Assembly (NCBI RefSeq): GCF_000026545.1
Contig: NC_011601.1
Direction: 5' to 3' (one strand)
DNA from: Escherichia coli O127:H6 str. E2348/69
GTDB taxonomy: Bacteria; Pseudomonadota; Gammaproteobacteria; Enterobacterales; Enterobacteriaceae
DNA: 64,000 bases
The stretch's first letter is position 1. Every line of letters starts with the position of its first letter. Of this stretch, positions 27,001 to 29,625 are shown in pieces. The position numbers are program-made.

Positions 27001-29625
27001 ATTTTAGCTATCGCTCAGTCATTCTCACTCTTTCAGAGCGCAAGGTACTGCGGCTATTAGGTAAAGGATGGGGCATCAACCAGATAGCTTCATTGCTTAA
27101 GAAAAGTAATAAAACTATCAGCGCCCAAAAAAACAGTGCGATGCGTCGACTGGCAATTCACAGTAACGCTGAAATGTATGCATGGATAAATAGCGCGCAG
27201 GGTGCAAGAGAACTTAACTTGCCTTCTGTTTATGGAGATGCCGCAGAATGGAACACAGCCGAATTAAGAAGAGAAATGTCGCACTCATAGAAAAATGCGT
27301 CATGAGTAGTATCGGTATTGAGAGTTTATTCAGAAAGTTTGCGGGTAACCCTTATAAGCTCCATACCTATACCAGTCAGGAGTCATTTCAGAATGCCATG
27401 TCGCGGATCTCTTTTGCGGCGGTCATTTTTTCTTTTTCTGCCATGAGAAGTGAGCGCAGAGAGGGATTATCTTGCCTGACTGAATTGGCGATTAAGTTTC
27501 CGCGTACCCGGCGTTTAGTTATTGCGGATGATGATATTGAAGCTCGGCTGATTGGTTCATTGTCGCCATCACCGCTGGACGGTGTATTAAGTAAAGCGTC
27601 AACGCTGGAGATTTTTCATCAGGAACTCTTTTTGTCATTAAATGGTGTACGTCAGGCGACCGACCGACTGAACAATCAGTGGTACATTAACCAAAGCCGG
27701 ACGCTAAGCCCGACGGAGAGAGAAATATTGCGCTTTATGTCGCGTGGCTACTCAATGACACAAATTGCCGAGCAGCTTAAACGCAATATCAAAACGATCC
27801 GTGCACATAAATTTAATGTGATGTCGAAACTGGGCGTCAGTTCTGATGCAGGGTTGTTGGAGGCCGCAGATATTCTGTTATGTATGCGGCATTGCGAAAC
27901 AAGTAATGTGTTGCATCCTTATTAATCCGCATGATGCCGGGTTTACTTCCCCGGCAGTGCTTTCATTTCAGCGTACAATCGCCACATTGCTGCACATCCG
28001 GTAAGCGATAACGCTGGCAGCAAGTGCGGCGCACCAGCAGGCCGTCGCGCAGTACCACGGTACGCCAGAGTGGATTATCTTCACCGTTCGTGAGCGTTTT
28101 CTCAAAAAAGAGGGCATGGCGCAGCGATTCAACCGTCGCCTCGCCGAGCAGTTGCTTCATCTCAGTGAGATACCAGTTGATCAAATAACCGGTATTGCTC
28201 CAGATAAGTTTGCCGTTAATCTCTCCCGTTGCTTCTAGTGCCTGCACAACCGGAACCAGCGCCTGGCTGATTAACGTTTCCATTCGCTGCTGCGGCGAAT
28301 GTAGTGTTGCGTTTTTATCTTCACACACATCGACCCAGAAACAGGCGGCGCGTCCGGTTTCGTGAAACTCAACGTGGACATGTTCCGGCGACACATCTAA
28401 TGCTTTTTCCTGAGTCAGCAGCGCCAGCATTAATGGTGGTACCATCAGGCCGATATACCATTGCGCCCACAGTGAGATCAGCGGTTTGTTTTCGCGGATC
28501 ATCAAAGGTTGGTTGCGGTAGATATGATCGGAATAGACCGCGAGTAGAGAACTTAGCGCATTAGGTGATGACCATTGCGCCAGCGTCATGGCGTTAAGTG
28601 GGGCGGGTTCATCCAGGCGGATAAACTCCAGCAAATGTTCACGATGTTCGGCGATCGTCGCCCGCACGGCTTGTGCAAGCCCAGCATCCTGCGGCTGGAG
28701 ATGCGTTCGCCAGATAACATCTTCATAGAGCGGTGCGGAACGATAGGCCATAATCGTGATGGTAATCTAAATGATAATTATTGCTAATCCTATCGATAGG
28801 TTTACCCGATAGCAAGGGATTTCTCTGGCTTGCAAATGATAAGAATTATCATATGATATTAGTTATCATTATCAATGAAAGAGATGAAACCATGTTGCAA
28901 CGTACGCTGGGCAGTGGCTGGGGAGTGTTGCTGCCGGGATTGCTGATTGCAGGGCTGATGTATGCGGATTTATCGCCGGATCAATGGCGGATTGTCATTC
29001 TGATGGGATTGGTATTGACGCCGGTGATGCTGTATCACAAACAGTTACGGCATTACGTTTTGCTACCATCGTGCCTGGCGCTTATTGCTGGCATCATGCT
29101 GATGATAATGAATTTGAATCAGGGGTGATAAAACAGTGAAGAGACAAGAAAAGAAGTAAAGATAATTGGTGCGAGGGGGGGGACTTGAACCCCCACGTCC
29201 GTAAGGACACTAACACCTGAAGCTAGCGCGTCTACCAATTCCGCCACCTTCGCACAGTCATCTTACTTTTTTTGATATCGCCTCGTTTGGTGCGAGGGGG
29301 GGGACTTGAACCCCCACGTCCGTAAGAACACTAACACCTGAAGCTAGCGCGTCTACCAATTCCGCCACCTTCGCCCAGTGCGAGCAATATCAACGTGGTT
29401 TTTGGTGCGAGGGGGGGGACTTGAACCCCCACGTCCGTAAGGACACTAACACCTGAAGCTAGCGCGTCTACCAATTCCGCCACCTTCGCATACCATCAAT
29501 TCTTAAAAAGAATTGCTACCACGGAGGCGCATTCTAGTGGTTTTCAGCTTTTCGTCAATAGTTAATTATCGCCGGAGGTGTAATTGCTGGAAAAATGTCC
29601 ATCAGGAAACTAACGTGCAGGTTTT

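Follow-up and report, generated by a model that had tools for sequence, protein, structure and literature searches.

The leuP gene of the leuQPV operon in Escherichia coli O127:H6 E2348/69 is very probably an ancient, structure-preserving tRNA-Leu isodecoder

Why should one base set apart the middle member of three tandem tRNA genes that otherwise read the same? The question is raised by a 64,000-nucleotide (nt) stretch of contig NC_011601.1 from Escherichia coli O127:H6 str. E2348/69 (assembly GCF_000026545.1), referred to below as the window, in which three tRNA-Leu genes with anticodon CAG follow one another and the central copy departs from its neighbours at a single position of the variable arm. 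A preliminary description of this DNA offered two readings, namely a natural isodecoder variant or a recent point mutation that had escaped gene conversion within the operon. Our analysis points firmly to the first of these. The locus is, very probably, the ordinary E. coli leuQ-leuP-leuV operon (leuQPV), with leuP as an ancient natural isodecoder that preserves the tRNA structure and is close to neutral.

Exactly three tRNA genes were found in the window by ARAGORN, all on the minus strand and all tRNA-Leu with anticodon CAG. The anticodon cag stands at position 35 of each, in the centre of a 7-nt loop, and each gene reaches 48.5 bits with the Rfam tRNA model RF00005, whose gathering score is 29. 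Since the genes lie on the minus strand, the order of transcription runs from 29489 to 29167, giving leuQ (29403..29489) first, leuP (29288..29374) in the middle and leuV (29167..29253) last, each of 87 nt and each identical to its K-12 namesake (b4370, b4369 and b4368, respectively). Chance is excluded as the source of the three copies, because 87 nt are shared by each at 99-100% identity. The spacers, also read on the minus strand, are 28 nt between leuQ and leuP (29375..29402, AAAACCACGTTGATATTGCTCGCACTGG) and 34 nt between leuP and leuV (29254..29287, AACGAGGCGATATCAAAAAAAGTAAGATGACTGT).

Alignment of the three 87-nt copies gives 86 invariant columns and a single difference. At gene nt 48, leuQ and leuV carry C and leuP carries T; the two states are called the C-form and the T-form hereafter. 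The base is numbered by its place in the 87-nt gene, and no Sprinzl position is assigned. The variant base lies at window position 29327, where the plus strand reads a. On the strand as given, gtaagaaca occupies 29322-29330 in the middle copy, versus gtaaggaca at 29201-29209 and 29437-29445 in the outer two. A possible misreading of this position was checked, and both the tandem array and its one-base difference stand exactly as the preliminary description had them. As is typical of class II tRNAs, the variable arm of all three genes is long, with a four-pair stem (nt 46-49 with nt 54-57) closed by a UUAC loop. The leucine identity elements of E. coli tRNA-Leu are A73, G18G19 and the tertiary framework of the D- and T-loops (PMC9976931). 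In the window the discriminator A precedes an encoded CCA (3' end GC-A-CCA), and GG is found in the D-loop at gene nt 18-19.

Comparison with a reference leuQPV, which the preliminary description had proposed as the check, was made with K-12 MG1655 (NC_000913.3, 4606079-4606401). The K-12 operon has the same gene order and the same 28- and 34-nt spacers, and its leuP has the same T at nt 48. Over 401 aligned nt the two strains agree at every base from 41 nt upstream of leuQ, across all genes and both spacers, to 14 nt past leuV, and a few substitutions appear from 15 nt downstream of leuV onward. The neighbouring genes are shared as well, with rsmC upstream and yjjZ and fhuF downstream. The gap between rsmC and leuQ is longer in E2348/69 than in K-12 (300 vs 267 bp), while the tRNAs themselves show no difference. 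The fourth Leu(CAG) gene of K-12, leuT, is an 87-nt C-form identical to leuQ and leuV. It differs from the leuQPV genes in lying at another locus, in argX-hisR-leuT-proM, an operon of mixed tRNA genes, for which RNase E-dependent processing has been reported (PMC2190699). As one minus-strand transcription unit, leuQPV would provide three out of the four genes that the cell has for tRNA-Leu1, the species with anticodon CAG. The CAG anticodon reads CUG, the commonest codon of E. coli.

The operon and the single-base difference of leuP are already known, at textbook level for E. coli K-12. The one-nucleotide difference of LeuP is stated in PMC12472396, and the reference set of a tRNA-seq preprint keeps leuP apart from leuQ, leuT and leuV (bioRxiv 10.1101/2020.02.21.958157). 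A figure legend in PMC2190699 calls the leuQPV genes identical, which shows how minor the leuP difference is considered.

How far the T-form extends beyond these two strains was examined first within the species, in 5426 complete E. coli genomes (5429 matching records), using short queries chosen so that one mismatch drops a match below the 99% identity band. An exact copy of the 87-nt T-form gene occurs in at least 4536 of the 5429 records (83.6%), a count which is a lower bound because some assemblies have homopolymer errors. A native 98-nt query, comprising leuP plus spacer, is matched exactly in 3356 E. coli records, and an artificial version of the same length with C at nt 48 in 575. The surrounding 1501-nt stretch is 95-99% identical to nearly every complete E. 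coli genome.

Across species, a 26-mer specific to the T-form was found at no fewer than 120 loci in a scan of 100,044 species-representative genomes. Among the matches listed, the genera include Yersinia, Serratia, Pantoea, Erwinia, Pectobacterium, Xenorhabdus, Proteus, Morganella, Hafnia and Cedecea, as well as Rahnella, Rouxiella, Buttiauxella, Enterobacter, Citrobacter, Phytobacter, Pseudocitrobacter and others; Salmonella enterica subsp. arizonae and E. albertii also carry it. ARAGORN runs on the matched loci place the T-form in two settings. In many genera it is the Leu(CAG) gene of argX-hisR-leuT-proM, so that the leuT slot, occupied by the C-form in K-12, holds the T-form in many other Enterobacterales. 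Elsewhere it belongs to tandem arrays of two or three genes, and tblastn searches with the RsmC, YjjZ and FhuF proteins of the window place these arrays at the rsmC-yjjZ locus that leuQPV occupies in E. coli.

These syntenic arrays are orthologous to leuQPV, being composed of two or three Leu(CAG) genes in tandem, flanked by rsmC and yjjZ, with the same C/T dimorphism at nt 48. The base at nt 48 was read for each slot, in 5'-to-3' order, in the three-gene arrays among the matches listed (n=46), a sample selected for the presence of the T-form and thereby biased in its proportions. The order found in E2348/69, C-T-C, accounts for 18 of the 46. It is seen in E. coli, E. albertii, S. arizonae, Citrobacter amalonaticus, Citrobacter sp. 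R56, Phytobacter, Pseudocitrobacter, Enterobacter sp. Bisph1, Serratia marcescens, S. oryzae and Serratia sp. Ag1. The other arrays differ from it, reading C-T-T (11/46), C-C-T (6/46), T-T-C (5/46), T-T-T (5/46) or T-C-C (1/46). Some of the syntenic arrays differ further in the acceptor or T stem, or within the variable arm, where loops of UUUC or UAAC, a U.G pair at 49-54 and a compensatory C-G pair at 47-56 are found.

From these distributions, the C- and T-forms are both old in Enterobacterales. The leuP gene shares its anticodon and acceptor identity with its siblings, differs from them at nt 48 alone, and keeps that difference stably in K-12, in most E. coli and in other genera, as is expected of a natural isodecoder; this branch of the preliminary description is therefore the one that holds.

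Within the variable arm, nt 46-49 (GUCC) pair with nt 54-57 (GGAC), and the C48-G55 pair of the outer genes becomes a U.G wobble in leuP. When the cloverleaf is imposed, the C-form evaluates to -30.0 kcal/mol and the U-form to -27.1 kcal/mol. The isolated variable arm keeps the same hairpin in both, at -5.2 and -2.3 kcal/mol, respectively. The U48 of leuP would thus alter the third of the four variable-arm pairs without unfolding the arm. Among 23 distinct 87-nt Leu(CAG) sequences taken from the fetched loci, the pair 48-55 is CG in 12, UG in 10 and UA in one, and it is never unpaired. The whole variable-arm helix is 100% paired across the same 23 sequences; two of its pairs vary on both sides, and at pair 47-56 a compensatory change from UA to CG has taken place. 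The variable arm is also the main site of intragenomic variation among Leu(CAG) copies.

Individual relatives provide further observations on this arm. In Yersinia aldovae (L003, 1936-2022) and Buttiauxella (L066 and L071), further isodecoders lie inside the same array, one with a Watson-Crick U48-A55 pair in the variable arm and another whose arm reads GCUC...GGGC with the compensatory C47-G56. The acceptor stem is a separate matter. All three genes of the window have an A5/C79 mismatch there (for example, at window positions 29249 and 29175 in leuV). The pair 5-79 is unpaired in 13 of the 23 distinct relatives, and the relatives show AU, GU and other, non-paired combinations at this place.

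Neither the sequence nor the folding of the variable arm was found to correlate with leucylation by E. coli leucyl-tRNA synthetase (LeuRS; PMC9976931). Because LeuRS ignores both features, the leuP form would be expected to be nearly neutral, and it is most likely functionally equivalent to the C-form, or nearly so, judging from this published behaviour.

The operon was fetched from selected E. coli genomes and nt 48 was typed for each slot. The C-T-C order of the window and K-12 is joined by C-C-C in enterotoxigenic E. coli H10407 and in O55:H7 RM12579, by T-T-C in FHI_NMBU_03 and by C-T-T in SF-173. Shorter arrays occur as well, with two genes in 2015C-4136CT1 (T-C) and in A4 (C-T), and a single C gene in O157:H7 Sakai (L127, 14567-14653) and O157:H7 Z1814 (L126, 902-987). 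About 60 E. coli records match exactly a T in the leuQ slot, and about 12 do so for the leuV slot.

The backgrounds of these haplotypes were compared over 330 nt of flank on the yjjZ side. The C-C-C order stands on at least two flank backgrounds, since H10407 and O55:H7 are separated by 10 mismatches. The flank of the single-gene locus of O157:H7 is identical to that of the C-C-C strain O55:H7 RM12579, and the single gene is consistent with collapse of the array through recombination between identical repeats. The T-T-C, C-T-T and two-gene forms have flanks only 0-2 mismatches from that of E2348/69. We infer that the minority haplotypes are the states expected from occasional gene conversion together with unequal crossing-over. 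Gene conversion, as invoked in the preliminary description, therefore has a place at this locus in so far as it fits the CCC, TTC and CTT haplotypes and the collapsed arrays; it is not the origin of the T in leuP. The persistence of that T probably reflects the rarity of conversion between repeats of only 87 nt.

It should be mentioned that some assemblies show C9 or C7 in place of the C8 run that spans the T-stem and the acceptor stem, yielding genes of 88 or 86 nt. Cases are L123 609-696 (CP025268.1), L126 902-987, and L129 363-448 and 483-568. This C8 run is an indel hotspot in mismatch-repair-deficient E. coli (PMC8510543). In assemblies of wild-type strains, long-read consensus errors are the more likely source of the C7 and C9 runs. 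The record CP025268.1, labelled 'MG1655' and typed as C-C-C, was considered as a case of conversion during laboratory time and was set aside, as the C9 run in its leuV suggests consensus errors.

Several points weigh against a near-neutral, structure-preserving isodecoder. Unconstrained minimum free energy (MFE) folding of the bare copies does not give a cloverleaf, and the z-scores are weak (-1.42 and -0.61). Failure of MFE folding to return the cloverleaf is common for unmodified tRNA sequences, and MFE folding was replaced here by the energy of the imposed cloverleaf and by pair counts across relatives. The U.G pair has a cost of about 2.9 kcal/mol in the nearest-neighbour model. Values of aminoacylation, stability or fitness for the leuP form were not found in the literature. 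The cross-species array sample, as said, was selected for the T-form, and the slot proportions are biased to that extent. Finally, the T persists in the middle slot, with 18 C-T-C arrays out of 46 as compared with one T-C-C and six C-C-T among the matches listed, and this could indicate selection; such persistence counts against neutrality because it is somewhat unexpected if neutral conversion proceeds freely.

The last of these points leads to the explanation that survives best beside the preferred one, although we consider it unlikely. It holds that the U48.G55 isodecoder is functionally distinct and is retained by selection together with the C-form, typically as the middle gene of the rsmC-yjjZ array, across Enterobacterales. 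The difference might concern stability, modification, processing, fragment production, or the action of a tRNA-targeting nuclease or another tRNA-binding protein. Retention of the middle-slot T at an orthologous locus from Escherichia to Serratia would be accounted for in this way, as would the position of C-T-C as the commonest order among the T-containing three-gene arrays listed, the retention of T by most E. coli, and the concentration of intragenomic variation in the variable arm. However, leuP has C within an unchanged spacer context in no fewer than 575 E. coli records, and successful pathogens do without the mixture, H10407 and O55:H7 being CCC and O157:H7 having one gene at the locus. 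Other genera, among the matches listed, are TTT, CTT, TTC or CCT, so a fixed mixture is not required. The indifference of E. coli LeuRS to the sequence and fold of the arm (PMC9976931) also speaks against a selected difference, and the arrays counted in its favour were chosen on T and are phylogenetically non-independent.

The second reading of the preliminary description, a T that arose recently by point mutation in this strain or lineage and has yet to be erased by conversion, has hardly any probability left. It draws on nothing beyond the prior expectation that identical tRNA genes in tandem homogenise, to which may be added that, where a gene is highly transcribed, C-to-T is a common kind of mutation on its non-template strand. 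Against it, the same base is found in leuP of K-12 MG1655, for which it has been published, in no fewer than 4536 of the 5429 E. coli records, and in the middle slot of syntenic arrays from other genera, Salmonella, Citrobacter and Serratia among them. The recent-mutation reading is rejected because both forms are old and widespread; the K-12, E. coli population and cross-genus distributions rule it out. An error of sequencing or assembly in the window is just as improbable. Although some public assemblies do seem to err here (the C7/C9 runs of L123, L126 and L129, and the C at leuP in CP025268.1), such an error is for practical purposes ruled out by three independent E2348/69 or O127:H6 assemblies that agree with the window at 100% over a 1501-nt stretch and by the same base in K-12 and thousands of other genomes.

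Candidate expression signals of the operon may also be read from the window. A consensus scan upstream of leuQ locates a promoter-like sequence on the minus strand at 29531..29558, TTGACG and TAGAAT separated by 16 nt, with consensus bases at 10 of 12 positions; the G+C-rich GCGCCTCC comes next. Judging from this sequence and its position, transcription of leuQPV probably starts from a near-consensus sigma-70 promoter ahead of the G+C-rich stretch. The interval from the -10 hexamer to mature leuQ (29490..29530, minus strand) would contain that G+C-rich stretch, the putative transcription start (near 29524) and the 5' leader. A literature search on the leuV promoter returned no relevant paper. 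Downstream of leuV, in the region at 29129..29166 that reaches as far as the stop codon of the convergent yjjZ, the terminator scan found no intrinsic terminator hairpin on the minus strand.

Processing of this precursor has been described for leuQPV. The 5' leader of the tricistronic precursor is removed and the tRNAs are separated by RNase P alone, the leuQ-leuP spacer is without an RNase E site, and an unstructured Rho-dependent terminator follows leuV (PMC2190699). Because the spacers and the upstream region are identical to those of K-12, the same mechanism can be expected in E2348/69, where RNase P would cut the tricistronic precursor and transcription would end at the Rho-dependent terminator.

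In the RefSeq annotation of E2348/69 the three tRNA-Leu genes lie between rsmC upstream and the convergent yjjZ plus fhuF downstream. The conserved upstream neighbour rsmC (29790..30821, minus strand) is outside the operon, and yjjZ, which encodes a DUF1435 protein, is the conserved convergent neighbour downstream (28892..29128, plus strand); tblastn also places both beside Leu(CAG) arrays across Enterobacterales. Between the leuQ promoter and rsmC are palindromic repeats of the repetitive extragenic palindromic/bacterial interspersed mosaic element (REP/BIME) type at 29629-29711 (plus strand), with a further REP-like unit at about 29737-29773. The Rfam model naRNA4 (CssrE) scores 70.3 bits in the same gap, against a gathering score of 59.5. 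The gap itself, 300 bp here and 267 in K-12, is 197 bp in H10407 and 189 in O55:H7 and O157:H7, which suggests that the number of REP copies between rsmC and leuQ varies among strains.

With the operon and the leuP base already familiar from K-12, what is added here is descriptive. The dimorphism at nt 48 is ancient and orthologous across Enterobacterales, with the pairing of the variable arm preserved, and E. coli itself holds a small spectrum of converted or collapsed arrays, comprising CCC, TTC, CTT, two-gene arrays and the single gene of O157:H7. Were the selective explanation true, a functional difference between two tRNA-Leu(CAG) isodecoders would be implied. For genome work, leuQPV is a caution in the assembly and polishing of repeated tRNA genes. 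For the biology of E. coli, leuQPV could be a convenient natural marker of gene conversion and of unequal exchange among short repeats in tandem.

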